From an uncultured virus (IMG/VR IMGVR_UViG_3300044715_001903) (Duplodnaviria > Heunggongvirae > Uroviricota > Caudoviricetes): a stretch of 64,000 nucleotides of DNA. The stretch lies in the IMG/VR virus record IMGVR_UViG_3300044715_001903, one strand, 5' to 3'. Shown piece after piece: positions 11,922-48,263 of this stretch; position 1 is the stretch's first letter, and each line of letters begins with the position of its first letter. A program made the position numbers and the translations under genes. The notes under the pieces were generated by a model that had not been told where the DNA came from, did no database searches, and was given only the letters and a program-made list of their open reading frames with translations.

Positions 11922-12993
11922 GGATCGCAGAGACTTTGCAATTGTCGTTCCCTCATATCTTGATGATTACGGATTAAGCCCTTACGAGTACAGGCTTTAC
12001 TCTCACATAGTCAGACGCGCCGGGAAAAACGGGTGTTTTGAATCTATTGGGAATATTGCCAAACATTGCTTGATGAACGAAAAGACGGTCAGGCAGTCAC
12101 TAAAGGTTTTACTGGGCGCGGGGATGATTGCAGTAGTTGAATCTAAAAAAGGTAAATCGGTAGTTTATGAAGTAACCCCGCATGAGGACTGGGTGACACC
12201 AGAAGAATTGCCAAACATACGGAATAAGCGCACCCCTACCAAATCAGGTACTACTACCCCTACCAAATCAGGTACTACTACCCCTACCAAATCAGGTACT
12301 ACTACCCCTGCCAAATCAGGTACTACTACCCCTACCAAATCAGGTACTACACCCCTACCAAATTTGGCAGACGAAGTATTTCCCTCTAAGGAAATCCCTT
12401 TCAAGGAAATCCCATTAAGTGAGAGAGAAGAACCCCCTACCCCCGAAGTTGAGGTTTTAACTCCAAAACCAATAAACCCAGAAATCCAAGGAAGTGCCTT
12501 AGACCAAATCGGTTTCCCTGACCAATCAAAACCAGAATCTTTGCAACAAACCGAAAATCTTCCGTTAGGACAAAATTCCCCCGCGCCGCTTGCAAAAGCT
12601 GAAACAACAGCAGATAGAGTTAGACGCACTTGGCAAGAAACCGGAATGTTGCCCAGTATCCCGATGGAATTAGAGGCATGGGTACAAATAGACCTTGGGA
12701 GTGAGATCGTGGCTTCCTACCGCAAATCTGGCAGGGTTATGACGATAAAGCAAGGGGATATCCAACCCACTTTTGCTTCTTACGTGGCCAGCCAGTGGAA
12801 AGGGAAGGACATTGACTATGGCTACAGCTACATCAGAAGCCTAGAAAAAGACCCGACTAAGTGGGAGACGTTGGCTGCCTTGGTAATCAAATGGCAAGCG
12901 TCTAAGTCAACCAATAATCACAACCTCAACATTACCCAAGAGGTTGAAAGAGCATCAAAACCAGTAGTTGATTTTGAAGGAATAAGACTATGA
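11908..12993 (+). CDS. Replication initiator (HTH N-terminus, internal iteron-like repeats)
   Basis: LDDYGLSPYEYRLYSHI...IAKHCLMNEKTVRQSLKVL; internal 24-bp repeats as in lambda O-type genes. Confidence 0.75.
   Translation: MNQIKDRRDFAIVVPSYLDDYGLSPYEYRLYSHIVRRAGKNGCFESIGNIAKHCLMNEKTVRQSLKVLLGAGMIAVVESKKGKSVVYEVTPHEDWVTPEELPNIRNKRTPTKSGTTTPTKSGTTTPTKSGTTTPAKSGTTTPTKSGTTPLPNLADEVFPSKEIPFKEIPLSEREEPPTPEVEVLTPKPINPEIQGSALDQIGFPDQSKPESLQQTENLPLGQNSPAPLAKAETTADRVRRTWQETGMLPSIPMELEAWVQIDLGSEIVASYRKSGRVMTIKQGDIQPTFASYVASQWKGKDIDYGYSYIRSLEKDPTKWETLAALVIKWQASKSTNNHNLNITQEVERASKPVVDFEGIRL
12232..12369 (+). repeat. 24-bp tandem repeat x5 plus a partial copy; candidate origin iterons
   Basis: ACCCCTACCAAATCAGGTACTACT units. 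Confidence 0.9.
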
Positions 12994-13843: not shown

Positions 13844-14596
13844 ATGAACGCAGAACAACTCAAGATCATTGCAGAAAATTCACCCCGTAAAGCCGCGGCA
13901 ATTCTAGGTGTTCACATCAGAAAGGTTCGATATCACAAGCAAAGAATGGAGGGGAAGAGTGTAAAACAGCCAAAAGAACCCAAAACAAACTACAAGAAAT
14001 GGGATCAAGAAGAGGACAATTATTTATTAACTTTCGGGAATGGCTCAACTTATCCAGAGTTGCAGGAAGCGCTTAAAGCGTCTCGGACCCAAATAGACCA
14101 TAGGTGCAAAATTCTTGGCGTTTCTCCAAAGAAACTAAAACATCACAAAACCCTCGCAGAAGAGGAAAAAGAGGTTTGTTTACAAGGGTATCCTCATCAA
14201 GTAGCGGAAAAGCTGGGAGTTTCCATCTCAACTGCTAGACGACGTAGAAGAGAGCTACTGAAAATGGATTATCGGCATTTTGACGCACGGACTTCAGTGC
14301 CATTACCGCCATCTACACCAACTAAATCGCTGATAAATTTTGTTAGTTTGAATGATGCTGAACAACCTAAAGAGCAAATCGAGGAAAGATTACACCATGT
14401 TTTGAAGGAAGAAAAAAACAAGATTGGGATTAATGAAATTTTGTCACAATTTCAAATGACCACCGGACAAATTCACCAGATGAAACTTATTTATTCCTAC
14501 AGCCCTAAATCGGCTGTGAGATATTGCGAAGTAATCAGAGAATATGCAAAGAACAAAACCGCATATTCGCCAGCAAGAATTAGGAATGACAGATGA
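13844..14596 (+). CDS. Multi-HTH DNA-binding protein
   Basis: KAAAILGV, WDQEEDNYL, QVAEKLGVSISTARRR. Confidence 0.65.
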   Translation: MNAEQLKIIAENSPRKAAAILGVHIRKVRYHKQRMEGKSVKQPKEPKTNYKKWDQEEDNYLLTFGNGSTYPELQEALKASRTQIDHRCKILGVSPKKLKHHKTLAEEEKEVCLQGYPHQVAEKLGVSISTARRRRRELLKMDYRHFDARTSVPLPPSTPTKSLINFVSLNDAEQPKEQIEERLHHVLKEEKNKIGINEILSQFQMTTGQIHQMKLIYSYSPKSAVRYCEVIREYAKNKTAYSPARIRNDR

Positions 14597-15273
14597 ACCA
14601 ATTAACTTTAGATTTTTCCGTACCAGAATCCACAAAACCAACTATGAAGCGCCATGATTTTGATAGGTACGACAGCCCTCACTGGTTCATCACTCATTTA
14701 CCCAATTACATCAAGCTAGAGGGCATAGTTGGCGAACCATGCAAAGGCAGTGGGAATATATCTAAATTGCTTGGATTTATTAAGCACGTAAATCATGTAT
14801 GGACTAACGATATAGATCCTAGTGTTGTTTCTGATTATCATCTTGATGCGGCTGATCCAAAATCATGGGAACAACTACCATATACGGATTGGATTGTCAC
14901 TAATCCGCCATTCAATGCAGCATTACCAATTCTCAAAAACAGCCTAAATCATGCGCGGTTGGGCGTGGTTTTCTTCCTGAGATTATCCTTTGTCGAACCA
15001 ACAGAAGAACGCGGACAATGGCTATTTGAGAACCCCCGTAACTTGGATTTAATTTACCCAAGATTTAAGTTTAGAAAGGATAAGAACAACGAACGGTGGC
15101 AGACGGATTCAGTGCCAATAATTGCTATGATTTGGCATAAAGATACGAGCGAAACAAGAGGATCTATCACTATCCCTCAATCGCATATCTTGGGGTTTCA
15201 TAATAACCCTGAGAACGCGCCAAGTTTTGATAGGCAAGTGGAGATTTTGCAACAAGTTCAAGCAAATAATTAG
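14593..15273 (+). CDS. Phage DNA methyltransferase-like protein (amino-methyltransferase)
   Basis: DRYDSP, EPCKGSG, IVTNPPF motifs. Confidence 0.75.
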   Translation: MNQLTLDFSVPESTKPTMKRHDFDRYDSPHWFITHLPNYIKLEGIVGEPCKGSGNISKLLGFIKHVNHVWTNDIDPSVVSDYHLDAADPKSWEQLPYTDWIVTNPPFNAALPILKNSLNHARLGVVFFLRLSFVEPTEERGQWLFENPRNLDLIYPRFKFRKDKNNERWQTDSVPIIAMIWHKDTSETRGSITIPQSHILGFHNNPENAPSFDRQVEILQQVQANN

Positions 15274-15286
15274 GAGAAAAATAATC

Positions 15287-15733
15287 ATGGATACATTACT
15301 AATTTCATTGCACCCGCGTCACAGTCAAAATATTGTATTAGGCAAGAAAACAATTGAGTTGAGGAAAACAAAACCAAGAATGAGAAAATCAGAAAGTCGT
15401 TTAGTCCAGAAGAAATCATTAGCATTTCGGAATATTCTCATTTACGAAACTACTCCTACTTCGGAAATTAAATTATATTGTCAGGCATGGGATTGTGGCG
15501 CATTATTAGCATCCGAATGGACTAAACACTCAACTGATTTATGCCTTTCTGCTGAAGAAATTGAGAATTATTTAGGATCTCGCATGGGTTACGGAATTAG
15601 AATTAGAAACCCTCGACAAATTACGCCTATCCCACTATCAAAAATGCGTGAGTTGGGTATAGCTCCACCACAAGGTTTCTGTTATTTAAATAATGAAATG
15701 ATTGAAAGATTAGGGATTAAATTTAATGATTGA
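15287..15733 (+). CDS. ASCH/PUA-domain protein
   Basis: LISLHP......I..GKKTIELRK...IYET.P...PPQGFCY. Confidence 0.8.
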   Translation: MDTLLISLHPRHSQNIVLGKKTIELRKTKPRMRKSESRLVQKKSLAFRNILIYETTPTSEIKLYCQAWDCGALLASEWTKHSTDLCLSAEEIENYLGSRMGYGIRIRNPRQITPIPLSKMRELGIAPPQGFCYLNNEMIERLGIKFND

Positions 15734-17263: not shown

Positions 17264-17367
17264 TTTATTTTTATTTTTCCCATATCCCTCGACAATAAGC
17301 ATATAACCCTCTATTTTGAGGGTTTTTAGTCATCAAAAAAATATTTTAAAAATTTTTCCAAAACCCC

Positions 17368-17396
17368 TTGACAAATATTTGTTATCCTGTTACTAT
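17368..17396 (+). promoter_or_regulatory. Repeated sigma70 promoter, copy 1
   Basis: TTGACA-17-TACTAT with palindrome ACAAATATTTGT; AGGAG RBS downstream. Confidence 0.9.
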
Positions 17397-17432
17397 ATAA
17401 GAGTGAGAGAAAAAACAACAGGAGAAAGAACA

Positions 17433-17855
17433 ATGCTTGAATTAACAAATCAGAATCAGAGAATTATAGCTGGTTGCCTTGGAAATGGGGTCACTTTTGG
17501 GGATGTGCTTAATGATCAAACTGTGGCTCATGTTTCCTTTGAGGGGCAAATAACATGGCATTCTGATTACAAAAAAAAGATCGCAGAAGCTACTAAAAAA
17601 CACATTCAAGAAACATCACTAGAATATCAAAAACAAGCCATGATCCCTCTTGATGCCATTATCAGCCCTAGAGATCACAAGTTTATGGCCACTTACCTAT
17701 ATAAAAATTCTCAAGGTCAATACAAACATTTAGCAGATATCTACTACCCCAAAGGCAAGGACAAAGGGGGAGTTTATCTCAAAGTGTGGGAAGGCATTGT
17801 GCCACCTGAAATACTGGAAGAAATGAACCAGCTTTATAAATCCAATGGAGGATAA
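17433..17855 (+). CDS. Early cassette protein 1 (unknown)
   Basis: ATG after the promoter and RBS; terminator hairpin follows. Confidence 0.8.
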   Translation: MLELTNQNQRIIAGCLGNGVTFGDVLNDQTVAHVSFEGQITWHSDYKKKIAEATKKHIQETSLEYQKQAMIPLDAIISPRDHKFMATYLYKNSQGQYKHLADIYYPKGKDKGGVYLKVWEGIVPPEILEEMNQLYKSNGG

Positions 17856-18011
17856 AACCCAGCCCCCAAAAGGGGCATTTTATATCACGATAAAACCCTC
17901 AACTTTGAGGGTTTTTTATTGTTTAAAATTCGTGGCAGTCTGAGAAATTTTACTAACTTAATTCACGGTAAACTGTCACTTTTTAACTTTAAAAAAACTT
18001 TCCAAAACCCC

Positions 18012-18040
18012 TTGACAAATATTTGTTATCCTGTTACTAT
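18012..18040 (+). promoter_or_regulatory. Repeated sigma70 promoter, copy 2
   Basis: Same TTGACA-17-TACTAT block. Confidence 0.9.
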
Positions 18041-18073
18041 ATAAGAGTGAGAGTTCAATAAAAGGTAAAAACA

Positions 18074-18370
18074 ATGATTGATGTCTACTACAGTTGTCTT
18101 CTGGATGAAGAAAACTGCCCAGAAATCACTACAGCATCAAGAAAAAGGGCTTTAGAATTAGCTCAACAAAAAACTAGTAACCCTGTATCAGTAGCAGAAT
18201 TTGAAAAGGGGGAATATCTGTTATTTTATGAGAAAATTTCAGTTGATGAGACATTGCCTGAGAACAGGGGATATACTATAGAAGCCATTATCAATGACTT
18301 AACTCCTCAATGTAGTGATGCAGAATATTCCTCTCATAGAAAAGTTAAAGTTACCTCCCAAGAGTGCTAA
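18074..18370 (+). CDS. Early cassette protein 2 (small, acidic)
   Basis: Promoter-RBS-ORF-terminator unit. Confidence 0.8.
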   Translation: MIDVYYSCLLDEENCPEITTASRKRALELAQQKTSNPVSVAEFEKGEYLLFYEKISVDETLPENRGYTIEAIINDLTPQCSDAEYSSHRKVKVTSQEC

Positions 18371-18396
18371 GACTGAAATATTTGTCCTATTCTTAG

Positions 18397-18426
18397 TAAC
18401 CCAGTGCATAAAACACTGGGTTTTTT
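18397..18426 (+). terminator. Intrinsic terminator
   Basis: AACCCAGTG...CACTGGGTT followed by a T-run. Confidence 0.8.
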
Positions 18427-18476
18427 CATGTTGCCTAAGTCATCAAAAAATATTTTAAAAATTTTTCCAAAACCCC

Positions 18477-18505
18477 TTGACAAATATTTGTTATCCTGAT
18501 ACTAT
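18477..18505 (+). promoter_or_regulatory. Repeated sigma70 promoter, copy 3
   Basis: Same block. Confidence 0.9.
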
Positions 18506-18542
18506 ATAAGAGTGAGAGAAAAAAACAACAGGAGACAAAATA

Positions 18543-18806
18543 ATGTTTGTTACATTTGAAACCATAGAATCTAAACAAATCACAATTGACATCACTGGAG
18601 TAAGTGGCTGGGATAATGAGCAATTAACAAGATATGCCTGTGAACAATTGAATACAGACTACACAGATTATCAAGATAGAAGAAGTAGAAAACTGAAAAA
18701 AGGGGCAGTAGTAACTCCAATAAATTGGAGGCCTCTAAAAGTCTCTTGCAGACAAAAAATGCTTACCATAAAAAGACCACCTAGGAAATATTCAGTAGTT
18801 TTCTAA
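18543..18806 (+). CDS. Early cassette protein 3
   Basis: Promoter-RBS-ORF-terminator unit. Confidence 0.8.
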   Translation: MFVTFETIESKQITIDITGVSGWDNEQLTRYACEQLNTDYTDYQDRRSRKLKKGAVVTPINWRPLKVSCRQKMLTIKRPPRKYSVVF

Positions 18807-18823
18807 ACATAAAACCTAAGCAT

Positions 18824-18860
18824 AATACCCTGGATTAGTGATAGTCCAGGGTATTTTTTT
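18824..18860 (+). terminator. Intrinsic terminator
   Basis: AATACCCTGGA...TCCAGGGTATT followed by a T-run. Confidence 0.8.
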
Positions 18861-18898
18861 AGTCAAAAAAATATTTTAAAAAAACTTTCCAAAACCCC

Positions 18899-18927
18899 TT
18901 GACAAATATTTGTTAGTAGGTTACTAT
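18899..18927 (+). promoter_or_regulatory. Repeated sigma70 promoter, copy 4
   Basis: Same block. Confidence 0.9.
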
Positions 18928-18962
18928 ATAAGAGTGAGAGAAAAAACAACAGGAGACAAAAA

Positions 18963-19241
18963 ATGAAATTATCTACATTAGCATTAGACAACATCAAGAC
19001 TACAGCAAATATACTGGGGATGATCAAAAATGGTGTTTTACAGTTCCCTAGTGGAACTGTAATCAAATTAGCTTTTATGCTATCTGCCAGTATGCTATCT
19101 AGCAGATGCAAAATAGAAGAAGACCTATTGCCAGAAATATATAGGTGTGTAGAGACTTATAGTTATAAGGTGGTATCCCCACCTGAATCTACTGTCAAAG
19201 ATGATGAGATCATCATTTCTATATCTATAGAAATACCCTAA
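18963..19241 (+). CDS. Early cassette protein 4
   Basis: Promoter-RBS-ORF-terminator unit. Confidence 0.8.
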   Translation: MKLSTLALDNIKTTANILGMIKNGVLQFPSGTVIKLAFMLSASMLSSRCKIEEDLLPEIYRCVETYSYKVVSPPESTVKDDEIIISISIEIP

Positions 19242-19326
19242 TTAGTAACCCAGTGTCCTTATGCACTGGGTTATTTCATGTTGCCTAAGTCATCAAAAAA
19301 TATTTTAAAAATTTTTCCAAAACCCC

Positions 19327-19355
19327 TTGACAAATATTTGTTATCCTGATACTAT
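19327..19355 (+). promoter_or_regulatory. Repeated sigma70 promoter, copy 5
   Basis: Same block. Confidence 0.9.
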
Positions 19356-19387
19356 ATAAGAGTGAGAGAAAAAACAGGAAACAAAAA

Positions 19388-20362
19388 ATGAGAGTAGCAG
19401 AAATTAACACCACAGAACTAAATTTAGACCCCAAAAGATTTCAATACAAACTAGTCCACAATTCAACAGGTGCTACTGGTTCATTATCAGGAATTGACTC
19501 CTGGAATATCTATTTGTCAGGAATTGTATTGGTGTGGGAAGATTTTGGAGACATTTATGTGGTCAATGGTCACAACAGAGTAACCCTGGCCAAAAAGCTG
19601 GGGGTTCAAAAAGTTCTCTGTAGGTTCATTGATGCCTCTACTCATGTAGAAGCTAGGCTAGTAGGTGCACTGGCCAACATTGCAGAGGGTATGGGAACTG
19701 CCATTGATGCAGCCAAGTTTTTTAGAGACTCATCATATACCGTAAAAGACGTAAAAAACTTTGGCATTAATCCCAGGTTAAAAATAGTGCAAGATGGGTT
19801 AAGCCTGTCCAATCTGGTTAGTTTCCTGTTTGATAAGGTTATTACTGGCACTATTCCCATTGATAAGGGTGTGATTTTGGGTAGTGTAGGGACCAGAGAA
19901 CAGTTGGAAGTCTGGGAATTGATTAAGGATAAGCAGGTTAGCACCCCTGCATTGGATGAAATTATCGCAAATATCCTTAACCCTGCAACTGGGCAAATGT
20001 CCCTGCTTAACCTCTACATAGACAGTGATGATGAGCTAATAAGACTAGAGTTAATTGCCCTGGTAAGGGTCAAGCTACAAAGATCCAAAAAACTATTACA
20101 CTTAGTCTCAGATAACTCTCAATTCCTAGAGTCAATAGGAAACAACTTAAATCACACTGGCAACACATCAACTGGTGAGTTAACTCACTATGTGCTACAA
20201 ATTTTTGACCAGTTAAAAAATCAGAGTGGACCAGTAAGTGACATTCTCAGTAAAGGTGTCAATGCTATAAAATCAGGTCAATCAATGCCTGATGTGATAA
20301 CTGTTTGTGTTAATGAACTAATCACAGTTATTCCTAGAATGATCAACCAAAAAGTTGCTTAA
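19388..20362 (+). CDS. ParB/Srx-like N-terminal domain protein
   Basis: DPKRFQYK...LVW....YVVNGHNR..LA. Confidence 0.75.
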   Translation: MRVAEINTTELNLDPKRFQYKLVHNSTGATGSLSGIDSWNIYLSGIVLVWEDFGDIYVVNGHNRVTLAKKLGVQKVLCRFIDASTHVEARLVGALANIAEGMGTAIDAAKFFRDSSYTVKDVKNFGINPRLKIVQDGLSLSNLVSFLFDKVITGTIPIDKGVILGSVGTREQLEVWELIKDKQVSTPALDEIIANILNPATGQMSLLNLYIDSDDELIRLELIALVRVKLQRSKKLLHLVSDNSQFLESIGNNLNHTGNTSTGELTHYVLQIFDQLKNQSGPVSDILSKGVNAIKSGQSMPDVITVCVNELITVIPRMINQKVA

Positions 20363-20422
20363 CCAAAGGTTTAACCAGTTGACTACTTGTTACAAGTGGT
20401 CAACTTTTTTGTATGAGATAAA

Positions 20423-20941
20423 ATGAATAAACATAAACAGTTATCAATTTTTGACTTGTTTCCACAAGATGAGCAGGTGAGAGGCAAGGCAACTGAAACT
20501 CACCCCACACCACCACCTAGAAACTCAGTAATTGGCAAAATGAGGGCTATATCAATCCATGCTCCTCATGCTTATGCAATTTGCCTAGCAATAAAGCCCT
20601 ATGAGTATAGAAACTCTCCTACAAAGTTTCGGGGTTGGGTTTTGATTCATTCCAGTGGCAGCAAAGCTAGTGATTCAAGCTTTAAAGACTATCAGTTAGA
20701 AGACATCAGACACCTTGTTTCCAGGCAAGCTTTAATTGGTGCTGGTTTTATATCAGACTGCCAGAGGATGGAAGAAGGGGGCTTTGCCTATTTATTCAGT
20801 GAGGTATTGTTATTTGACAGCCCTGTTGAAGGGGTGAAGGGTTGCCAAAGCATATTTTGGGGGGACTGTAATGACCCTGCTAAAATAAAGGCTTTTGAGC
20901 AAGCTAGAGAAGAATTAAAGGCTTTTGATATTAGCCTTTAA
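20423..20941 (+). CDS. ASCH-domain protein
   Basis: AISIHAPHAYAI...KPYEYRN....FRGWVLIHS...ALIG...KGCQSIFW. Confidence 0.8.
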   Translation: MNKHKQLSIFDLFPQDEQVRGKATETHPTPPPRNSVIGKMRAISIHAPHAYAICLAIKPYEYRNSPTKFRGWVLIHSSGSKASDSSFKDYQLEDIRHLVSRQALIGAGFISDCQRMEEGGFAYLFSEVLLFDSPVEGVKGCQSIFWGDCNDPAKIKAFEQAREELKAFDISL

Positions 20942-20947
20942 TGTCCT

Positions 20948-20989
20948 GTAAAATAGAGGGTAATTAGTGCCAATTACCCTCTATTTTAC
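20948..20989. repeat. Perfect inverted repeat with 18-bp arms (terminator or regulatory)
   Basis: GTAAAATAGAGGGTAATT-AGTGCC-AATTACCCTCTATTTTAC. Confidence 0.85.
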
Positions 20990-20990
20990 T

Positions 20991-21464
20991 ATGAATTGGA
21001 TATACAGTATGCGTCCCGATGTGGCGTTAATGGTGTTAGATAGCCAAATTAATATACTATTTTCTCCAATAAAAATAACCGGAAAAGTCGCAATTCATAC
21101 GACATTTTATGAAGACAAGAAGGAACAAATAAAATGTGATCAAATGATTAGAGACATGGGGTACGAACCCGACCATATTCTCGAAGGTAGCTTAATGGGA
21201 TGGGCAAAAGTTAAAGAGTGTATTGTTTACGATGACAATAGCTTTATGGCAGATTACAATAAGCACCGCTCTATAACGCCAAATTTACAGCAATTTAGGC
21301 AAGATAATCAATGGTATGGCGATGTTTTTGGAGTGTATTTAGAAAATATAAATATTCCAGCATTGCCGATAATCTGGATAGGGGAATACCAAAAACCCGG
21401 TACATGGTGGCAGCCCGGAGTACCGTTAGACTCCATCGGCTGCAAGATTTTATTTGCAAGTTAA
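20991..21464 (+). CDS. Divergent ASCH-like protein
   Basis: YSMRP.VA...GKVAIH...GSLMGWAKVKEC. Confidence 0.55.
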   Translation: MNWIYSMRPDVALMVLDSQINILFSPIKITGKVAIHTTFYEDKKEQIKCDQMIRDMGYEPDHILEGSLMGWAKVKECIVYDDNSFMADYNKHRSITPNLQQFRQDNQWYGDVFGVYLENINIPALPIIWIGEYQKPGTWWQPGVPLDSIGCKILFAS

Positions 21465-22111
21465 GCGGCTCTTTGTGATCTTCGTCTATTGGCTATCTGT
21501 TTAATAAGTTGACCTCTAGCCGCCCTTGCTTCGCTAGGTCTAGGACGGACTGCTGGTGTTGGTGCTGTTGCTGATGCAGCCCTCCTAGAACCTCTGTTTT
21601 GATGGGGATCACCACTGGTGCTACCACCACCAGCATTGCCAGTCCTACCGCCACCACCGCCAGCATTAGCAGTAAGCCCACTTCTTCGTGCTTCTCTCAT
21701 TGTCCTCCTAGAAGTTGGGTCAAGAAATTCTGCTGTCGAATAACGGTTTAGCCTGTTACGTCTTCTGGCTGGGGTATCATTGTAAGCATCAAAGCCAATC
21801 CTCATCCTCCGTGGCGTACCTTGTCCACCTCCAATACCTCTAGCAACGTTAGCAATGCCGCCTCTAGTGCTACCGCCACCAGCATTGCCAGTGCTACCGC
21901 CACCAGCATTGCCAGTCCTACCGCCTCTTCGTGCTGTTTCTGCTATTACTTGCGGCCTACTACGTGTATCAGTAAAATCCCCCCTTTGTTGTGCTGGTGT
22001 GAAAAAACGGTTAATCCTGTTGCGAGTTCTAGGGTTCTCAAAATCAAGTCCAGTACTTATCCGTCGCCTACCTTGTCCGCCTCTAGTGCTTCTAGCAACG
22101 CCTCTAGCCAT
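21461..22111 (-). CDS. Arg/Gly-rich basic low-complexity protein
   Basis: Strongly basic with GRTGNAGGGST repeats; start placed at MARGV behind a GGGAAAA motif. Confidence 0.65.
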   Translation of the reverse strand: MARGVARSTRGGQGRRRISTGLDFENPRTRNRINRFFTPAQQRGDFTDTRSRPQVIAETARRGGRTGNAGGGSTGNAGGGSTRGGIANVARGIGGGQGTPRRMRIGFDAYNDTPARRRNRLNRYSTAEFLDPTSRRTMREARRSGLTANAGGGGGRTGNAGGGSTSGDPHQNRGSRRAASATAPTPAVRPRPSEARAARGQLIKQIANRRRSQRAA

Positions 22112-22158: not shown

Positions 22159-22488
22159 ATGACGGTATTAGCAGAAAGTGATGCAGTTCACTACGAGTTA
22201 CTGACAGATGAGAGCGAGATTATCGGCAGCGTGTTTGCTGTTGACCAGTGCGAGTATATCGAGATAGTTGATTTATCCGTTGGACAAGAATTTCAAGGTC
22301 AAGGTTATGGGCGATCGCTCATGCAGATAATCTTTGACAATCACCCAGACACCATACTTTGTTTACGATGCAGCGCGTTCGACAATGGATTAAGTCAGGA
22401 AAACTTAGCGGAATGGTATAAACGGCTGGGATTTGTGGATGGTACACCATTTCATCAAGGTGATGGGTGGATGCACAGACCTATTTAG
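22159..22488 (+). CDS. GNAT acetyltransferase
   Basis: V..EFQGQGYGRSLM acetyl-CoA motif; WYKRLGF. Confidence 0.85.
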   Translation: MTVLAESDAVHYELLTDESEIIGSVFAVDQCEYIEIVDLSVGQEFQGQGYGRSLMQIIFDNHPDTILCLRCSAFDNGLSQENLAEWYKRLGFVDGTPFHQGDGWMHRPI

Positions 22489-23371
22489 CCGTCAGCCTGG
22501 CGCTAACTTCTGGGAACAAGTCACACAATTCTTTGAGTTGAACGGGTGCGTAACGCGCTAACCACTTATAATAAGTTCCACACAGAATTTCTGGGCTACA
22601 ATACCAAAGCGTCCGGGGAAATGGCTTGCCTTTTTTCTGCGGTATTTGGTGCATTGAGTAAATAGGTGAGATTGGTGCGTCCTCTTCCACTAGCAACGCC
22701 CAAACATCAATATCAAGCCAATCACCTATCGGGAGTCCACGCACATAGGGTAAATAGTCTTTTTTGTCCTGATCACGGAATTGAATTAGTCCTTCTCGAC
22801 TAATTTCAAACTGGCGTTCCATGCCTTCCGCGCCGCGATTTCCCCACATACACATTACATTGGGGTTTCCATCACCATAATTATGCTGAAATTGATAGAT
22901 GGCTTCGTAGGAAATGCTATCCCTCATTTCTCCCCAATCCCAAAAATTCAATGGTTGTCCATCTTTAGTTTTTAATCCGTAAGAATTACCCCAATCTAAA
23001 TATTTTTTAATAATTAATGGAAACGGGTCATCAGTTAAATACTCCTCATAATAAAACCCGTTACCAAATGAATTGATATAATCCTCCCACTCTGGCAAAA
23101 CATCATAGTGGTGCGGAAGTTCCGCACCGCAATCAATAATTAAATTACAATAATCAACCTCTGCTAATTCCAAAATTATTGCAGTTGCCATTGAGTCTTT
23201 ACCGTACCCAAACCACAATCCTGGTATGACATCCTGATTAATTTTAGGATCATCATACCAAGTCCGCACACGCTCAATGGTTTTGTTCTTGAGTGCCTGA
23301 AATTCATCAGTTTTCGCCCGTTTCGCTGCTTCTATATATTTCTTCTGCGGCAGTGCTTTCGATATTTCCAT
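22481..23371 (-). CDS. PAPS-reductase/PP-loop family protein (DndC/IbrA-like)
   Basis: FGYGKDS, D.GAELP, WGNRGAEGMER, PIGDW..IDVW. Confidence 0.8.
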   Translation of the reverse strand: MEISKALPQKKYIEAAKRAKTDEFQALKNKTIERVRTWYDDPKINQDVIPGLWFGYGKDSMATAIILELAEVDYCNLIIDCGAELPHHYDVLPEWEDYINSFGNGFYYEEYLTDDPFPLIIKKYLDWGNSYGLKTKDGQPLNFWDWGEMRDSISYEAIYQFQHNYGDGNPNVMCMWGNRGAEGMERQFEISREGLIQFRDQDKKDYLPYVRGLPIGDWLDIDVWALLVEEDAPISPIYSMHQIPQKKGKPFPRTLWYCSPEILCGTYYKWLARYAPVQLKELCDLFPEVSARLTAK

Positions 23372-23999
23372 CTCCCCAAATATCCCCTTCTAAAATGTTT
23401 TCAGGCCAAGTCAGTACATCTTCTTCTGTGCGCTGCACTTCTTCTTGGGTTTCTTCGCTGTCATCTTCTTCTTGGTCGTCACTTTCTTCTTGGGCATCAT
23501 GGATTAATTTCTCCAATTCTTCTAGTGGTAAATCAGCGTCTAGTTTCAATTGTTGAATACAAGCAAGTGCTAATTCTCGCGCCATTCTGTCTTGTGATTT
23601 TTGCAGAATAGCAACAATAAATGCCTTGCAAATATCTAACTGACGGCGGACATCCCCCATTTTTGATAGGCGAACCGCGCCATCCGCTAAAGCTAAAGTT
23701 CCCTGAAATGCTGCCAACATTCCGTTTAAATCAAGTCCTAAAAGCCGCAGTTTTAATTCTTCGACAAACTCAAAAGTTAGCTCCCCTTGTTCAACTAAAA
23801 TTTCACACGCTTGGAGCAAAGTTTTCCCTTCTTTGGAGAATTTCCCCGCGCCTTCAATTTGTGAAAGAATCCGACCATGGGCAGCATAAAAACTCTCACG
23901 GACAATGCTCTCAAAGTCATAATCTTGGGCATCCGTGAAAGCGTCGCGCCATTTCCCAGATAATCGTTTACCGTAGAGTCCGTTATTCTTCTTTGGCAT
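23307..23999 (-). CDS. Hypothetical helical protein with acidic tail (possible small terminase)
   Basis: Lies in the sigma operon next to an HGGxSTG-like gene; function inferred only. Confidence 0.55.
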   Translation of the reverse strand: MPKKNNGLYGKRLSGKWRDAFTDAQDYDFESIVRESFYAAHGRILSQIEGAGKFSKEGKTLLQACEILVEQGELTFEFVEELKLRLLGLDLNGMLAAFQGTLALADGAVRLSKMGDVRRQLDICKAFIVAILQKSQDRMARELALACIQQLKLDADLPLEELEKLIHDAQEESDDQEEDDSEETQEEVQRTEEDVLTWPENILEGDIWGDGNIESTAAEEIYRSSETGEN

Positions 24000-24288
24000 T
24001 ACGAACCAACCGGACTACTTGGGTAATTATCTTGTTGACTTCCTGCATCGCTTTTGAACGGCGACCATGCCTGATGTTGTTCTTTCCACATTTGGATTTA
24101 TCGCGTGGTCCGGTTGACTTCTCCCAAGGCCTATGTACTAAACATCGTTGACGTGCGGCTTCTATAAACTCAGGTGATAGGTTTTTCCGCTTGTACCTTT
24201 TAGGCGGATATTTTTTAGCCCTGAATGACTCCAAAAACTTGTCAGAATCCAACGTTTTCGGCTGTGATTGCTCCGTCTGTACTGTCAT
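23983..24288 (-). CDS. HGGxSTG-like basic phage protein
   Basis: RCLVH..WEKSTGPR...N.IRHG. Confidence 0.55.
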   Translation of the reverse strand: MTVQTEQSQPKTLDSDKFLESFRAKKYPPKRYKRKNLSPEFIEAARQRCLVHRPWEKSTGPRDKSKCGKNNIRHGRRSKAMQEVNKIITQVVRLVRNAKEE

Positions 24289-25213
24289 TTATTGCCACTC
24301 CTAACTCGGTGCTCATCATGTCTACTATCTTTAGAATTACCTGACTCCGATATTGCTGAACCATGCCCTCAGTTGAGATGCCAATTTTGGGTGCAAGTTG
24401 GTCAAGTTTAGAGCGAAAATTAGCTAAATCACCCTTATCTAAAAAGATAAAAAACTGTGTTTGCTCACCCTTCCCGGTGTAGTTAATTGACTGAACTGCA
24501 CCAACATCTGTCACATTTTCAGTTTCAACAATGACCTTTTCCGCAGGTGGTGGAGGTGTGTAATCGCTTCTACTGGGTGTTACGTCAATGGTAGTGCCAT
24601 CTTCACTCATTTGAGGATTTGGGTATTTCTCGTCATCAAAATCGTAACCCGTTTCTTCCTGTTCCTCTTCCGGTTCTTCTTTGCGAACTAGAAAGGCTCG
24701 CATAAAACTGTTAGCAGTTGAAGTATCCCAACCCGCTGTTTTAATCTGTCTTTTGGGCATTTGTGCCAAAATTGCGGCAATTTTACCGGGGTCATCACGT
24801 CCATCATGGCTAGTATTGTTAAGTCGAAGCAGCGCCGACTTTTGGGATAGTTCATCGAGCGTGACGGGAACGACGGGGATAGCAGTCCAATAATTAGCAC
24901 AAAACCGCTCTCGATGTTTTTCGGCTACTTTATCTCTCCCCGTCCCTTTGATCCACCGATCCCACTCTTTCAGGAAAAAATCTTCATCCTGTTGGCTTAA
25001 CCAATCCGCACCCTGAACCCTGCCATGTCCTGAGATGAGGTAGCCGAAACTACCGTCTAGGTTTCGCTGAATTGTGGGGTAAATCAACCATCCAAAATCT
25101 AGCAAGCTGTCACGAATCCAAGGCAAATCATTCTCTTCTGAATGTTCGCGGGGATTTTCAGGGTGGAATTTTGCCAATACGCTGGAGATTGGTAATCGTA
25201 AAACTTCACTCAT
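24242..25213 (-). CDS. ParB N-terminal domain protein
   Basis: HPENPREH...SLLDFGW..P...LISGHGRV...LNN. Confidence 0.82.
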   Translation of the reverse strand: MSEVLRLPISSVLAKFHPENPREHSEENDLPWIRDSLLDFGWLIYPTIQRNLDGSFGYLISGHGRVQGADWLSQQDEDFFLKEWDRWIKGTGRDKVAEKHRERFCANYWTAIPVVPVTLDELSQKSALLRLNNTSHDGRDDPGKIAAILAQMPKRQIKTAGWDTSTANSFMRAFLVRKEEPEEEQEETGYDFDDEKYPNPQMSEDGTTIDVTPSRSDYTPPPPAEKVIVETENVTDVGAVQSINYTGKGEQTQFFIFLDKGDLANFRSKLDQLAPKIGISTEGMVQQYRSQVILKIVDMMSTELGVAINDSTDGAITAENVGF

Positions 25214-26328
25214 TTTTTAGCAACCTCGACGGCTTCCTGAGATTTTTGCATAGCGCTGTTTAGCAGTTTTAACGCCTCGTCTAACTCTGGTGATTCACCA
25301 CAGTTCTTGATTAGGTAATCAGCGAGTGACGTAAATTTTGATGTAATCTGCCATTGTGATTGACTGGTACTCATTCGTTTTTTCGATAGATTTATTGAAT
25401 TATTGATAACATAATTTTTACTCCATAGGTAAGCGGTGCTGTGGTCAACTCCCAAATAAGTTTCACACCAATAACTAGATTTACCGTTAGCGATCGCCTC
25501 CAAAACTTTCAGCTTCACATTATTAGAATAGCCACGTCTCCCATTTGGCAATGGGTTCTCCCTGAATTGAGTCTGACAGGACTTGCACAAATAGCTTTGT
25601 TTCCCGTCACGTTTACCATTTTTAATAGTTTGATAGGATTTGCAGTTTGGACATTGAACACGCCCCGCAATAATTAACTTTAACTTTTGTAAAGACTCAG
25701 ATTTAATGCGGTGTAATTCCTTCAATTTAATATTATGGATTTGGCACAACATTTTGGCGGGGATATGGGTAATATATAAATCTTTGATGATTGTGGCGTG
25801 AAGTTCTGGCAACTTATCAAGCAGCGGGAGAATTGACTCTGATTCCTCTGCTTGCTCCGTTGTCAACTGTTCGGGTAGTTCAGGATTATTTTGATTGCAA
25901 GCTATCGCCGCCTCTTTGGCAACTTGTAAAGAGATATTTAGTTCAATGGCCGCTTGTTCATAAGTTACGCCATGTTTTTGCGCGTGTCGCTTCAATTTTT
26001 GGTGGGTTTCTTGGAGGGGACGCGGAACTTTTACCATCCGCGCTTTATCCCTGACAAATTGCGCCATTGCACCATAAATAAACGGCACGGCGTAACTGGA
26101 AAGTTTAATTTTCTTAGTAGGGTCAAACCTCTCCACCGCTTTGATTAATCCCTCCGCCCCAATTTGTATCAGGTCTTCTCTTGGGACTGTGCAGCAAGCG
26201 GTCATTTTACCTGCTATATGACCGACTAGCCCCATGTTAGTCTCAACTATTTTGTTTCTCAGTCGGATGTCCCTGGTTTGGTGAAAATTAATTAAAAGTT
26301 GCTGATTGTCTAAGTATGCCGCGTCCAT
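25210..26328 (-). CDS. Phage SigF/SigB-like sigma factor with C-terminal Zn-ribbon/HTH extension
   Basis: RNKIVETNMGLV, EDLIQIGAEGLIKAVERFDP, SSYAVPFI.G; then CPNC...YLCKSC. Confidence 0.88.
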   Translation of the reverse strand: MDAAYLDNQQLLINFHQTRDIRLRNKIVETNMGLVGHIAGKMTACCTVPREDLIQIGAEGLIKAVERFDPTKKIKLSSYAVPFIYGAMAQFVRDKARMVKVPRPLQETHQKLKRHAQKHGVTYEQAAIELNISLQVAKEAAIACNQNNPELPEQLTTEQAEESESILPLLDKLPELHATIIKDLYITHIPAKMLCQIHNIKLKELHRIKSESLQKLKLIIAGRVQCPNCKSYQTIKNGKRDGKQSYLCKSCQTQFRENPLPNGRRGYSNNVKLKVLEAIANGKSSYWCETYLGVDHSTAYLWSKNYVINNSINLSKKRMSTSQSQWQITSKFTSLADYLIKNCGESPELDEALKLLNSAMQKSQEAVEVAKK

Positions 26329-26714: not shown

Positions 26715-26987
26715 ACATTAAAAGCACCCTTTGAGGCGCTTTATTCACAAGGTGGAGAAATTCTTGCCTTACCTAATGGACATAAATTTTTTGACTCTTA
26801 ACTTTACAACAAGCAGGGCATTTTACACCCTCCAAATCTTCCCGTTCCGTACAAATTTTGATTTGAGAATTTACTACATCTTCATTTAAATAAAGCATAA
26901 AAAATGGGGTGATAGTTCACCCCATTTTTTTAACCTACTTTCATGCTTTTCTTGAATTTACTAGCATTAGTACAGGTTGTTAGTTGG

Positions 26988-27245
26988 TTAGTAAGGGGCG
27001 TTTTGAATCAACCATTGAATGTCCCCCTCATAGAGTTCCTGGTCTTCAGAGAACTCATTAACAAGATGACAAGCTTTGACAGCTTCACCTAGCAATTGTT
27101 TTGTTTGGCTCTGATCAGACATCCAAAATGTCCAGTTTTTTTGATTACCTAATTCAACCATTTTTGCAAAAATTTCTTTTGCATATTCACACACTTTAGA
27201 CCCCCATATCCAAGCACATATTAAATCAATTTCTACATTTTTCAT
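26988..27245 (-). CDS. Early cassette protein 6
   Basis: ATG behind promoter copy 6 with AAGGT RBS; hairpin downstream. Confidence 0.75.
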   Translation of the reverse strand: MKNVEIDLICAWIWGSKVCEYAKEIFAKMVELGNQKNWTFWMSDQSQTKQLLGEAVKACHLVNEFSEDQELYEGDIQWLIQNAPY

Positions 27246-27279
27246 GGTTTTACCTTTATTTCTCAACTCTCACTCTTAT

Positions 27280-27308
27280 ATAGTAACAGGATAACAAATA
27301 TTTGTCAA
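27280..27308 (-). promoter_or_regulatory. Repeated sigma70 promoter, copy 6
   Basis: Reverse complement of the TTGACA-17-TACTAT block. Confidence 0.9.
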
Positions 27309-27380
27309 GGGGTTTTGGAAAGTTTTTTTAAAATATTTTTTTGATGACTAAAAAACCCTCAAAATAGAGGGTTATATGCG

Positions 27381-27587
27381 TTATTCACCTTGTTTTTCTT
27401 TCTTCAATTTTGCCCGCTTTAGTCGCATATACTCTCTCATGTACTCTCGTTTGGCATCCTTGCGTTCGCGGTCTAATTCGCGTTCACGTTCCCTGACTTC
27501 AGGCTTCTGGCGATATTTCTTCCTCCGTGCCTTACCTTTTTCAGATCTTTCGTAATTCCATTGAGCTTTTCTTAAATTCTCGTCCAT
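27381..27587 (-). CDS. Small highly charged basic protein
   Basis: AGGAG RBS; YERSEKGKARRKKY. Confidence 0.65.
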   Translation of the reverse strand: MDENLRKAQWNYERSEKGKARRKKYRQKPEVRERERELDRERKDAKREYMREYMRLKRAKLKKEKQGE

Positions 27588-27667
27588 CGTGTTATACTCC
27601 TAATATTCCTGTTGAACTCTCACAATTTTCGCAGAGAAGACATAGCACCCCTCATGAGGGGTGCTAT
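27572..27667. repeat. About 95-bp imperfect direct repeat, copy 1 (ends in a 26-bp palindrome)
   Basis: Matches 29425..29521. Confidence 0.85.
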
Positions 27668-27707
27668 TGGTTTAGGGTTTCACTGTTTTTGACCTCTCTA
27701 CATTTAT

Positions 27708-27736
27708 ATAGTAACAGCCTAACAAATATTCGTCAA
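27708..27736 (-). promoter_or_regulatory. Repeated sigma70 promoter, copy 7 (variant)
   Basis: TTGACG-17-TACTAT with the same flanks. Confidence 0.8.
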
Positions 27737-27797: not shown

Positions 27798-29027
27798 ATG
27801 GGCAAAGCGTTAGAGGTTTTTGAAAAAACCTGTAAAAAAGGTAAAGCTTGCGGAAATGCTTGTATTTCCGCGCTTAAAAATTGTGCATCAAAGAAAACTG
27901 GGGAATCCACCAAGGAAACCGGAAAATCTACTAAGGAAACCGGAAAATCTACTAAGGAAACCGGAAAATCTACTAAGGAAACCGGAAAATCTACCAAGGA
28001 AACCGGAAAATCTACTAAGGAAACCGGAGAATCTACTAAAAAGACCAGGGGTTCTACTAAGGAAACCGGGGAATCCACCAAAAAAACTGGAGAATCCACT
28101 CAACCCACTAAAACCACACCTATATCATACAAAGTCGATTCTTCGGATCATAAGGCTTTGATGAACATAGGCAAGGATTTTTCTGATCAAACTATGGGGA
28201 AAGCACTAAAAGCATTACAAGATGCTCAAGCTGAGAAAAAGAATTTCTTTATGGACATAGAGAGGAATAACAAGAAAACCAAACAAGGAAAATGGTTCAA
28301 AAAAGATGAAAAACACGCAGCAAAATTGGATGAGAAAATGTTACTTGCCCAGAAAGAGCTTGAAGCGGCCGCAGAGGGAACGTTACAGAAATTAAAAGCC
28401 CATCATAAAATTGATAGAGAAGATGCAGAAAAATGGGCTAATTCACTTGTTTCTGACAAATTCACGCTCACAGGTAAAGACAGGGAAACAACTCTAACTG
28501 CCTTGGCGGATGCTTATATGATAACAGGCGGCATGGGTACGACAGAACTAAAAAAAGTAGTAAATATCGATACAGATAGAGCCTTTGCAAATCCATACAC
28601 TGGAGAACTAACTTTAGGAAGTAAGGGTCTAAAGATGCTTGACAAAGAATTAGCTCCAGACACTGAAAGTAGCCTTTCTTATCGTCGTGAGACAGTGTTC
28701 CACGAATACGCGCATTTTTCGGAATTTGAGAATAAGCAATTGGCTGTCGCGTCAAGAAAATTCATTGAAGATCGGGCTACGTCGTCTGAGCTTATGAAAA
28801 TAAATGATATAACTGGATTCAGCGGATACAGAGATAATGAGATGGCAATCCCAGACAACTTTATAGACCCCTATGTAGGGAAGATATATGGTCCTTCGGG
28901 TACTTGGACTGAGGTTGTTTCGATGGGAGTTGAAAGCTTTAAAACTCCCTTTCAGATGGCTTCCTTTTACAGGCGAGATCCAGAGCATTTTAATTTTATC
29001 TTAGGAGCGATTTTACATGAAAATTAA
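27798..29027 (+). CDS. Cys-rich N-terminus, repeat linker and zincin-like metallopeptidase domain
   Basis: CKKGKACGNACIS..C; TGKSTKE repeats; HEYAH motif; downstream EVVSMG. Confidence 0.75.
   Translation: MGKALEVFEKTCKKGKACGNACISALKNCASKKTGESTKETGKSTKETGKSTKETGKSTKETGKSTKETGKSTKETGESTKKTRGSTKETGESTKKTGESTQPTKTTPISYKVDSSDHKALMNIGKDFSDQTMGKALKALQDAQAEKKNFFMDIERNNKKTKQGKWFKKDEKHAAKLDEKMLLAQKELEAAAEGTLQKLKAHHKIDREDAEKWANSLVSDKFTLTGKDRETTLTALADAYMITGGMGTTELKKVVNIDTDRAFANPYTGELTLGSKGLKMLDKELAPDTESSLSYRRETVFHEYAHFSEFENKQLAVASRKFIEDRATSSELMKINDITGFSGYRDNEMAIPDNFIDPYVGKIYGPSGTWTEVVSMGVESFKTPFQMASFYRRDPEHFNFILGAILHEN
27894..28100 (+). repeat. 21-bp coding tandem repeat, about 10 units
   Basis: AAGGAAACCGGAAAATCTACT variants. 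Confidence 0.9.
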
Positions 29028-32075: not shown

Positions 32076-32357
32076 TCAACTGATTTTAAACTCAGTTACT
32101 TTGGTTTTAGTGCCGTTACTTTTACTTTCTTTGCTGATAATGTTGATTGCACCAACCAAGACAATAGCTTGATTCTCATCAAGTTGCGCTATTAATTCAG
32201 CTAATTTGCCAAATCCCACACACTTAATCTGTTTGACAGACTCCGATTTACTAGCATTTTGAAATGCTAGTAAGAACTCAGACATAGGTTTGTTGTCATG
32301 GCTATATCTAAGTTGTGGAGGGGATGAAATGATGCCCGATAAAACTGCGTTATTCAT
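32076..32357 (-). CDS. ssb: SSB-like OB-fold protein (possibly truncated)
   Basis: MNNAVLSG...PQLRY...KCVGFGKLAE. Confidence 0.75.
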   Translation of the reverse strand: MNNAVLSGIISSPPQLRYSHDNKPMSEFLLAFQNASKSESVKQIKCVGFGKLAELIAQLDENQAIVLVGAINIISKESKSNGTKTKVTEFKIS

Positions 32358-32506
32358 TTATAGTCCTTTGCCGTCTAAATCCAAAAACAATATTTTCATG
32401 ATGTTTAGCGGTGGCGATTCCACCGCAATTACTTTACTTATTTAACAGCCAAAAAGGAAACTAGGGAGCGGAAGTCAGGGAAGAGACGGGTTAAGGGATT
32501 GGCGGA

Positions 32507-32728
32507 TTAGCGTGAAACATGGTCAGTGTAGTTTTCTGTATTATAAAAAGCGTCTAGGATTTCTCCAACAGCTTCATTAATTTTTTCGATCTGCTTCTGC
32601 CTAAATTCTAAAATCTTTTGACAATAGGCGGGATCGTCAAACTCATGTTCTCTGGCAACATCCGCCAAATAAGATAATGCGGACTTAATAGACTCATGAT
32701 CAATGCAATCAATTTTTGGATATGACAT
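32507..32728 (-). CDS. Hypothetical protein
   Basis: Coupled to erf. Confidence 0.55.
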   Translation of the reverse strand: MSYPKIDCIDHESIKSALSYLADVAREHEFDDPAYCQKILEFRQKQIEKINEAVGEILDAFYNTENYTDHVSR

Positions 32729-32730
32729 GA

Positions 32731-48260: not shown

Positions 48261-48263
48261 CAA

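Follow-up and report, generated by a model that had tools for sequence, protein, structure and literature searches.

The window analysed here, a stretch of DNA 64 kb in length, belongs to a lake siphophage of Nostocales and contains on its forward strand a CG-purged block of five promoter cassettes with six genes (17291..21011). Each cassette begins with a cloned copy of the same sigma70-type promoter, TTGACA-17-TACTAT. The first copy, P1 (17368..17396), is AT-rich upstream and precedes cassette gene 1 (17433..17855; 140 aa, no family match, CG 1 observed/11.6 expected), after which come two terminator-like hairpins (17856..17920) and a spacer (17881..18011) that is probably untranscribed. P2 (18012..18040) stands before cassette gene 2 (18074..18370; 98 aa, CG 0/11.5), P3 (18477..18505, hairpin 18392-18432 upstream) before cassette gene 3 (18543..18806; 87 aa, CG 0/10.8), and P4 (18899..18927, hairpin 18822-18862 upstream) before cassette gene 4 (18963..19241; 92 aa, CG 0/8.4). 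The last copy, P5 (19327..19355, hairpin 19243-19282 upstream), precedes both an early ParB-like gene (19388..20362; 324 aa, CG 3/35.4) and ASCH-a (20423..20941; 172 aa, CG 1/18.9), which retains an intact KPYEYR motif, is purged across lineages and constitutes our candidate eraser. A strong hairpin (20948..20990) closes the purged unit, the next CG lying 26 nt on.

Beyond it, on the same strand, lies ASCH2 (20991..21464), a paralogue without the K/E/R motif that is unpurged (CG 18/13.7), followed on the reverse strand by a low-complexity Arg/Gly-rich protein (21461..22111), which in most relatives is encoded directly 3' of the PP-loop gene. A forward GNAT acetyltransferase (22159..22488) matches Acetyltransf_7/10/1 and not Mom. 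The remaining genes run in reverse: a PP-loop enzyme of CysD/PAPS-reductase fold with normal CG, the candidate writer (22481..23371); two conserved ORFs of 230 and 101 aa (23307..24288), terminase-small-subunit-like by position, where the protein of relative L184 matches a TerS PHROG; a late ParB-like protein (24242..25213); and a phage sigma factor, the first gene of the module operon (25210..26328). The candidate writer and eraser genes both adjoin the purged block. Further along the reverse strand are a detached cassette (26892..27308), composed of promoter P6 (27308-27280), a gene for 85 aa (27245-26988; CG 1/6.5) and a terminator (26932-26892), and an empty cassette (27640..27736), in which a promoter copy with CG in its -35 box (TTGACG) is followed at once by a terminator. 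At the latter site the relative G003 has a CG-free gene for 77 aa.

Extent and limits of the CG purge

Between 17300 and 21000 there are 8 CG dinucleotides (17582, 17888, 17931, 17966, 19741, 19750, 19966 and 20630) against 120.6 expected from base composition (Poisson P 5e-41), close to the 8 per 3.7 kb, with about 100 expected, that the first-pass annotation had counted by hand. The CG-free run placed there at about 17970-19740 extends exactly from 17967 to 19740, the return of CG near 21010 occurs at 21012, and the GC dinucleotide, said to remain common, is at its normal level (114). The windowed count which the same annotation called for gives at least 97 CG in each of the 212 other 3.7-kb windows of the stretch. 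The flanks, however, are not rich in CG as had been claimed, but ordinary (observed/expected 65/72 and 63/76). In the detached cassette, described as equally depleted, a single CG (26999) falls within 26849-27378.

The purge extends over every codon position and follows what is transcribed: the transcribed portions of the main block and the detached cassette together hold 6 CG vs 126.8 expected, whereas the 131-nt spacer from terminator 1 to promoter 2 keeps 3, of 2.9 expected, and so accounts for 3 of the 8 in the block. Its boundaries coincide with terminators here and likewise in the relatives G004, G007 and G418. The CG-purged set consists of the seven genes behind the six cloned promoters. 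The earlier proposal that the bias follows the promoter class holds for these six copies, which have 0-1 CG within 300 nt downstream, but not for the nine other promoter-like sites among the 15, which are followed by 3-23 CG. That unrelated genes share the bias is borne out also by G003, G004 and G007, in which unrelated genes are purged too, while 66 of 73 loci carrying distant homologues of the gene at 19388 are unpurged. Together these counts support the view that the bias tracks the transcription unit, not the origin of the gene.

Comparison of the window with G003 separates the early genes from the late ones. Of the synonymous differences, none of 11 and none of 31 alter CG state in the early genes, against 60 of 84 and 22 of 36 at matched neutral sites, and the late genes display no such gap (73/111 vs 182/276; 63/133 vs 63/141). 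On this comparison, the CG purge is held by purifying selection, which is still acting.

Motif avoidance in relatives and the associated module

Judged from the relatives, CG avoidance is one clade's form of a wider rule, of which the commoner form is a strand-biased avoidance of GTK. The coding strands of 13 ASCH-a genes from more distant, non-CG module phages contain 11 GTG and 14 GTT, with 55.4 and 64.2 expected; the reverse complements on that same strand are CAC at 78/71.3 and AAC at 75/111, with AAC at 0/12 in G014. This milder AAC deficit, reporting on the opposite strand, fits a mark on duplex DNA better than an RNA target. The GTK purge is individually significant in 11 of the 13 genes, and the two without it (L181, 7/9.3; L189, 10/13.3) count against the mark model set out below. 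In the same phages GTK is normal in ASCH2 (113/108) and in the PP-loop genes (348/313). A broader second motif, GTD, was narrowed to GTK after GTA proved common in L183, L185 and L186.

The purge travels with a module that comprises the ParB protein, the cysteine-less PP-loop enzyme, the Arg/Gly-rich protein and the two ASCH genes, and that adjoins the purged block; this association, with its GTK form in relatives, appears to be described here for the first time. Four module-bearing records are CG-purged. Module-less relatives lack the purge in two lineages, one represented by an incomplete record (66%); in one of the relatives concerned, G009, the slot behind the sigma factor is occupied by TerS-like, ParB and Mom genes (PF25680, E 1e-45). 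The run-length scores of L176, L183 and L186 (10-14) overlap those of module-less controls. Stand-alone copies of ASCH-a on host chromosomes (n=24) are likewise unpurged (GTK 217/234, CG 319/396), even though 23 of the 24 retain KxxE[YF]R.

The CG records are united in the PP-loop and ParB trees (support 100/100 for four, 99 for the three of the ParB tree), whereas the trees of ASCH-a, ASCH2 and five backbone proteins contain no strongly supported CG-only clade. Such concordance is weak evidence, because the switch from GTK to CG is one event, and the CG and GTK records differ at 19 PP-loop columns, a difference confounded with ancestry. ASCH2 was dismissed as specificity factor because the CG records do not fall together in its tree, and the GNAT as universal writer, not being found in G007, G014 and G418. 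Among 401 genomes of the order, and again among 401 of the phylum, a single one has the PP-loop enzyme, the same centre genome both times; of 5 genomes picked for their ASCH-a copies, 1 has it. Among 50,697 annotated phage records we found no DNA match to the block, no PP-loop homologue and no cultured phage with the enzyme; the best terminase matches are at about 26% identity and ASCH-a has only a 38-residue match.

A putative transcription-blocking mark and its candidate genes

How could a late gene module impose a motif rule upon early genes? The best model overall, to which we assign a probability of roughly 0.6, is that the late ParB/PP-loop module adds a bulky mark to progeny DNA around packaging, probably as protection from host nucleases, at a short motif. 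That motif would be CG in this clade; most relatives would instead use 5'-MAC-3' as read on the template strand, or GTK as read on the coding strand. Since such a mark on the template strand would stall host RNA polymerase, genes read from freshly injected DNA would have to stay motif-free from promoter to terminator. ASCH-a, read early, would then be the most likely agent to strip the mark and open the rest of the genome, although we put this erasing function at slightly less than even odds; that a mark on the DNA exists at all seems somewhat more probable than its absence. The first-pass annotation had offered two explanations, a polymerase-blocking modification of CpG in incoming virion DNA or a CG-directed host defence. 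The former is now favoured because the purge accompanies a phage gene module and host ASCH-a copies are unpurged.

The predicted model of ASCH-a (pLDDT 91.8) retrieves the ASCH domain of TRIP4 by Foldseek (E 7e-7, TM 0.72); its residues K23, E26 and R28 are invariant across 50 homologue rows, and the catalytic Lys and Glu of the GKER octapeptide, absent in ASCH2, are present in it. ASCH proteins of GKER type deacylate ac4C via a Lys/Glu dyad, the substrates assayed being tRNA and nucleosides, not acylated DNA (bioRxiv 10.64898/2026.02.27.708502); Glu-type ASCH proteins, according to a report cited there, lack this activity. The PP-loop enzyme aligns with CysD (1zun_A; Z 15.2, rmsd 3.0 over 171 residues) and, among 28 homologues, has G57-K58-D59 and E182 invariant and no cysteine in any invariant or nearly invariant column.

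Regarding the chemistry of the mark, the leading guess, albeit a doubtful one, is N4-acyl-cytosine made through an acyl-adenylate: the two template motifs share a cytosine, and N4-acyl-cytidine is a substrate that ASCH enzymes hydrolyse. A coding-strand G is equally common to both motifs, which counts against the cytosine argument. Three further observations bear on the marking model. Exclusion of the motif from promoter cores, as expected of a DNA mark, is not significant (0/5 vs 12/31, p 0.15); the motif is tolerated in promoters of purged cassettes (TTGACG in G007; 26039 in G418), which counts against a mark; and so does, for the model, a U-tailed hairpin (20372-20412) between P5 and ASCH-a.

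Carried to its end, the marking model would amount to a reversible armour of phage DNA, in which a ParB/PP-loop writer acylates (or peptide-links) cytosines at a switchable motif during packaging, the injected genome is untranscribable until released by a motif-free ASCH eraser, the whole acts as an early/late timing switch with its target readable from the purge, and the eraser has been captured by Nostocaceae hosts, perhaps to strip the armour. We advance this complete scenario only tentatively, as probably not correct in all its parts. If true, it would add a phage DNA modification that comes with a dedicated eraser, give ASCH proteins a substrate in DNA, and allow transcription-blocking marks and the motifs they target to be recognised from sequence alone in phages that are uncultured; the GTK-to-CG switch offers a natural pair for specificity mapping. 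The hosts are Nostocales cyanobacteria, probably with bloom formers among them.

Alternative readings and known systems

An unlikely variant, which overlaps with the marking model and leaves its gene logic unchanged, replaces small base acylation with a backbone adduct formed by adenylation, or with covalent attachment of the Arg/Gly-rich protein. The PP-loop fold without conserved cysteines would suit it, as would the adjacency of the Arg/Gly-rich gene at most loci and the precedent of DndC in the phosphorothioate system, a PP-loop ATP pyrophosphatase with the ParB-family partner DndB (PMC10853773); but the ASCH K/E/R motif would have no role unless the link were an amide, and the Arg/Gly-rich protein shows no invariant residue beyond Met1. 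Slightly less probable is a target in RNA, whereby a motif-specific RNase or mRNA modifier of phage or host origin acts on CG or GUK in transcripts at the start of infection, sparing those early phage mRNAs that lack the word. This explains equally well why the bias is stranded and why its limits fall at terminators, agrees with the non-significant promoter-core test and has precedents in CmdT, which modifies GA dinucleotides in mRNA (PMC11618068), and in ZmASCH, a single-strand RNase cited in bioRxiv 10.64898/2026.02.27.708502. However, AAC is low on the coding strand too, and the link with a module in the packaging slot is left unexplained. Moreover, were ASCH-a the nuclease, host copies with the motif intact would be expected to show a purge or to have disappeared, but the 24 are unpurged, and L176 possesses an ASCH-a of the CG-clade type yet is GTK-purged, as its PP-loop clade is.

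Improbable, too, is a host defence against CG or GTK DNA in transcribed incoming genes, for instance by an enzyme that modifies single strands in the transcription bubble, with ASCH-a and its neighbours read first as counter-defence. The motif could indeed track the host group, given that two small Nostocaceae genomes have an ASCH-a of CG type (CG 1/26.7) and that an 87% homologue carries a Dolichospermum label. Yet the GTK rule is the same across phages of 32-47% GC, with or without HIP1, and with PP-loop identity of 42-68%; the G009 lineage, which lacks the module, has genes in common with CG phages (zero branch length separates its head protein from that of G003) and has four promoter-like sites with no purged cassette behind any; and restriction would hit both strands and the whole genome.

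A selection-free origin, whether through mutation (5mC deamination, transcription-coupled) or through acquisition from a donor poor in CG, is very improbable, for the slight rise of TG (223/190) and CA (225/189) in the cassettes is matched by AG (230/196) and CT (174/147), 36 AGR vs 1 CGN arginine codons require C-to-A changes, no new CG was gained at about 50% synonymous divergence, and the purged genes are mutually unrelated, with CG-normal distant homologues and relatives that purge another word. Depletion by 5mC deamination is accordingly rejected, as there is no specific TG/CA excess and the loss follows transcription units; so are codon bias and an origin in one CG-poor donor, by the codon and dinucleotide counts and the synonymous comparison with G003. 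A methyltransferase-like gene (adenine/cytosine) at 14593, not found in the fragments of G003, G004 and G007, was discarded as the cause because unpurged G009 and G010 have it.

The phage pair IbrA/IbrB joins a PAPS-reductase-like protein to a ParB-like one, the former being defined by a C-terminal DUF3440 domain; the PP-loop enzyme of the window matches only PF01507, with no DUF3440, and hence falls outside that definition. In T5 and T7, first-entry regions are poor in restriction sites. The cassettes resemble these in that first-expressed DNA lacks a motif, but their purged units are scattered on both strands, bounded by terminators and strand-biased in relatives. Avoidance of restriction sites was therefore rejected, the pattern being neither genome-wide on both strands nor one terminal block.

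Mom is a GNAT that acylates phage DNA at N6 of adenine (PMC7824862, in the part available). It resembles the present case in the acyl mark, here proposed, and in the sister lineage with TerS-like, ParB and Mom genes in the same slot; the differences are that a PP-loop enzyme takes the place of Mom as candidate writer, that the Mom-bearing relative is unpurged and that the available part of PMC7824862 mentions no eraser. The Mom-family GNAT (PF25680) was found only in G009, not in the window. The Dnd phosphorothioation system likewise pairs a PP-loop ATP pyrophosphatase with a ParB-family protein (PMC10853773), but the enzyme here is phage-borne and without the DndC cysteine dyad; among the 91 proteins of the window, beyond which the genome may extend, no Dnd family is matched. 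With the ASCH amidohydrolases YqfB, TthASCH, TRIP4 and EOLA1, ASCH-a has in common the fold and the Lys/Glu/Arg motif of GKER type, although their known substrates are the ac4C nucleoside and tRNA (bioRxiv 10.64898/2026.02.27.708502), and phage DNA would be a predicted one. A title-level search of the literature retrieved no description of the purge or the module, although a 2013 paper on base modification in phages may mention the latter.

The cassettes themselves are shuffled between near-identical contigs, with 3 to 6 promoter copies in altered order, and G005 and G003 differ by inversion of the segment that lies between opposed promoter copies; assembly error in repeats is possible in both cases. 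In their architecture, a repeated strong sigma70 promoter and a stem-loop terminator around small ORFs, they recall the PeSL cassettes of the T4-type phages RB49 and phi1, in which strong sigma70 promoters and stem-loop terminators accompany small non-essential genes (PMC2839356). The available part of that paper reports no purge of a motif, whereas here one word is excluded from every cassette that is filled, and a module resembling a modification system adjoins the cassettes.

Exclusion of CG from the early cassettes

The CG depletion noticed in the first-pass annotation is real, strongly selected and broader than was then seen. Its count is exact, with 8 CG in 17300-21000 and none in 17967-19740; base composition predicts 120.6, where about 100 had been estimated, GC dinucleotides are normal, and sliding along the sequence gives at least 97 CG in all 212 other 3.7-kb windows (P ~5e-41). 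The return of CG near 21010 (the next lies at 21012) and the single CG of the detached cassette (26892..27308, minus strand) were likewise correctly read; the flanks, described as CG-rich, are ordinary in CG. Under a codon-randomized null, each of the seven purged ORFs retains 0.00-0.15 of the expected CG (pooled, 6 vs. 103.2), the median being 0.91 over 95 window ORFs. Every reading frame is affected: GCG, ACG, CCG and TCG are all absent, arginine is encoded by AGR 36 times and by CGN once, and C precedes a G-starting codon in 5 of 306 cases, otherwise in 165 of 678.

The seven genes are driven by six cloned copies of a TTGACA-17-TACTAT promoter, in units closed by hairpins, an array resembling the PeSL type (PMC2839356). 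Transcribed parts hold 6 CG versus 126.8 expected, and the sole spacer 3 versus 2.9; a seventh promoter copy, with no gene, has CG within its -35 box. The earlier claim that the bias follows promoter class survives in that unrelated genes of relatives are purged too, but not as a general rule, for unpurged DNA lies behind nine other promoter-like sites in the window. A very basic 68-aa ORF (27381-27587, minus strand) has a presence pattern unique among window genes, occurring in the window and related records G003, G004 and G007 and not in G014, G015, G016 and G418.

Three comparisons lead us to reject donor composition, codon bias or deamination as the cause. Among 73 loci homologous to the early ParB-like gene (19388..20362, plus strand), the purged ones are the seven at 79-100% identity, the 66 distant ones being unpurged. 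Purged ORFs recur in related phages, where it had been proposed to look (5 of 70 in G003, 8 of 64 in G004, 3 of 33 in G007), and many are unrelated to those of the window. Finally, about half of the neutral synonymous sites differ between the window and G003; at CG-forming sites of early genes, none of the differences (0/11 and 0/31) involves CG, with no comparable gap in late genes.

A second excluded word and its phage setting

In relatives without the CG island, long GT-poor runs cover the homologue of ASCH-a (20423..20941, plus strand in the window). Motifs were counted in every ASCH-a gene found adjoining the PP-loop module, excluding L182 (partial) and L190 (near-duplicate). Observed/expected counts in the 13 non-CG genes are GTG 11/55.4, GTT 14/64.2, GTA 52/75.8, GTC 45/48.7, CAC 78/71.3, AAC 75/111 and CG 254/271; the deficit of GTK (GTG or GTT) is singly significant in 11 of them, and not in L181 and L189. 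In the four genes of CG type the counts are CG 2/75.7 and GT 73/81, and the genes for PP-loop enzyme and ASCH2 (20991..21464, plus strand) have normal counts in both groups. In G418, a complete record of 105.9 kb, the stretches that lack GTK span ASCH-a plus several small cassettes, which lie on both strands, and stop at terminators. GTK is absent from the next 250 nt at 3 of 33 scanned promoter-like sites, a scan that overlooked some purged ones; genes behind similar promoters that we take to be helicase- and polymerase-like are unpurged. Additional GTK-poor small genes (0-3 each) lie upstream of or near ASCH-a at L183:13045-15207 and L185:10865-11698, forming a longer early operon. At L176:2496-2927, an ASCH-a of CG-clade type has no GTK and is poor in both CG (6/16) and MAC (2/11), possibly a swapped or transitional gene.

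What the purge goes with is the phage context rather than the ASCH-a protein itself. Of 389 Nostocaceae genomes, 35 carry homologues; among 30 loci examined, 24 (within L203-L228) are stand-alone host copies, unpurged (GTK 217/234, CG 319/396), the others being two known prophage copies (GTK 0/11.6), two long fused copies (GTK 3/13.0) and two CG-free loci (1/26.7). The host copies sit at differing chromosomal sites, and 23 of 24 cluster together among phage copies (SH-aLRT 87); they are possibly captured erasers. Records without the module (G009-G012, a single incomplete lineage, and G017) have no purge: in none of them does the best run score exceed 14 (CG) or 10 (GTK), versus 18-92 in 10 of 13 purged records, those of three short purged loci overlapping these controls. 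In G009, a sister lineage, the module slot behind the sigma factor (L132:15729-17461) holds a TerS-like gene together with ParB and Mom. The CG records group as a single clade when PP-loop sequences (100/100) or ParB sequences (99, three records) are used for the tree, and do so with neither ASCH-a nor ASCH2; none of five quick backbone trees strongly supports a CG-only clade, and G009 is intermixed in two. Since a single switch is involved, this concordance is no more than suggestive.

The late module and a proposed mark on packaged DNA

Late ParB (24242..25213), TerS-like ORFs, the PP-loop enzyme (22481..23371) and an Arg/Gly-rich gene (21461..22111), all on the minus strand, face ASCH2 and ASCH-a, an arrangement kept down to ~40% identity. 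The PP-loop enzyme has a CysD/PAPS-reductase fold (Z 15.2, rmsd 3.0, 171 aligned), in which GKD is invariant and no cysteine is. ASCH-a matches the TRIP4 ASCH domain, dsDNA being bound in some matched entries, and its K, E and R are conserved in 50 of 50 alignment rows; its paralogue ASCH2 (probability 94%) lacks all three. According to bioRxiv 10.64898/2026.02.27.708502, GKER-type ASCH proteins strip ac4C from tRNA via a Lys/Glu dyad, and some bind DNA. The purge singles out neighbouring genes as candidates for writer and eraser. On the features tested here, the window system falls outside Mom, Dnd and IbrAB; by analogy, it may act as Mom-type armour plus an eraser. No published description of purge or module was found in the literature searched, which was largely open access. 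Elsewhere (14593-15733), a methyltransferase-like gene precedes a third ASCH-like gene, both unpurged and present also in G009.

These data establish a selected ban on a short word in first-read genes, bounded by transcription, strand-biased and tied to a late module in a DNA-modification slot. Bulky adducts block transcription chiefly from the template strand, and we infer, with a probability of about 0.6, that DNA receives a mark at packaging which stalls RNA polymerase when on that strand. As the replication initiator and remaining genome retain the motif, the mark would have to be removed before the rest is read; ASCH-a, the gene whose purge recurs across lineages, may be the eraser, at slightly less than even odds, and would then open the remaining genome to transcription. 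For the chemistry, N4-acyl-cytosine leads tentatively, because CG and template MAC have cytosine in common and because PP-loop adenylation followed by amide formation would be the ASCH reaction reversed; alternatively, the adduct may be on the backbone or a peptide. Against such a mark are two module-linked ASCH-a genes that are unpurged (L181, L189), a non-significant motif test of promoter cores (p 0.15) and the fact that both words also share G on the coding strand. An origin of the purge at the RNA level, for which CmdT (PMC11618068) offers a precedent, is improbable, and host defence, raised in the first-pass annotation, slightly more so. The proposed mark/eraser mechanism is directly testable.

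Phage, host and other features

The window carries a siphophage gene set (terminase, portal, tape measure, lambda-like tail genes, sigma factor, O-like initiator, ERF). Its terminase relatives (81-84%) sit on contigs with Nostoc, Tolypothrix and Aetokthonos labels, in loci that look like prophages because host genes adjoin, among them what is presumably RbcL. Given these relatives and an ASCH-a homologue at 87% labelled Dolichospermum, the host is probably a small-genome member of Nostocales.

A SWIM-domain/ERF/SSB operon (32076-34507, minus strand) is about half CG-depleted. Its first gene (CG 23/35.7; homologues 23/39 in G004, 20/31 in G003, 27/32 in G009), homologous to the portion fused with ASCH-a in G014, G015 and L179, is perhaps a second-wave gene. 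Contig L003:1-4732, 99.7% identical to the window, connects 46000-50434 to 13692, reflecting either a gene-order difference among near-identical strains or misassembly. A 73-nt direct repeat (97%; 61894-61966 and 63109-63181) brackets a 383-aa ORF (61945-63096) in the manner of a mobile element, and a 56-nt inverted repeat pair (96%) lies 7.6 kb apart (35037-35092 and 42701-42756). Internal repeats occur in the O-like replication gene (24-nt tandem, iteron-like, 12208-12355) and in a 409-aa ORF (21-nt, 27849-28120).
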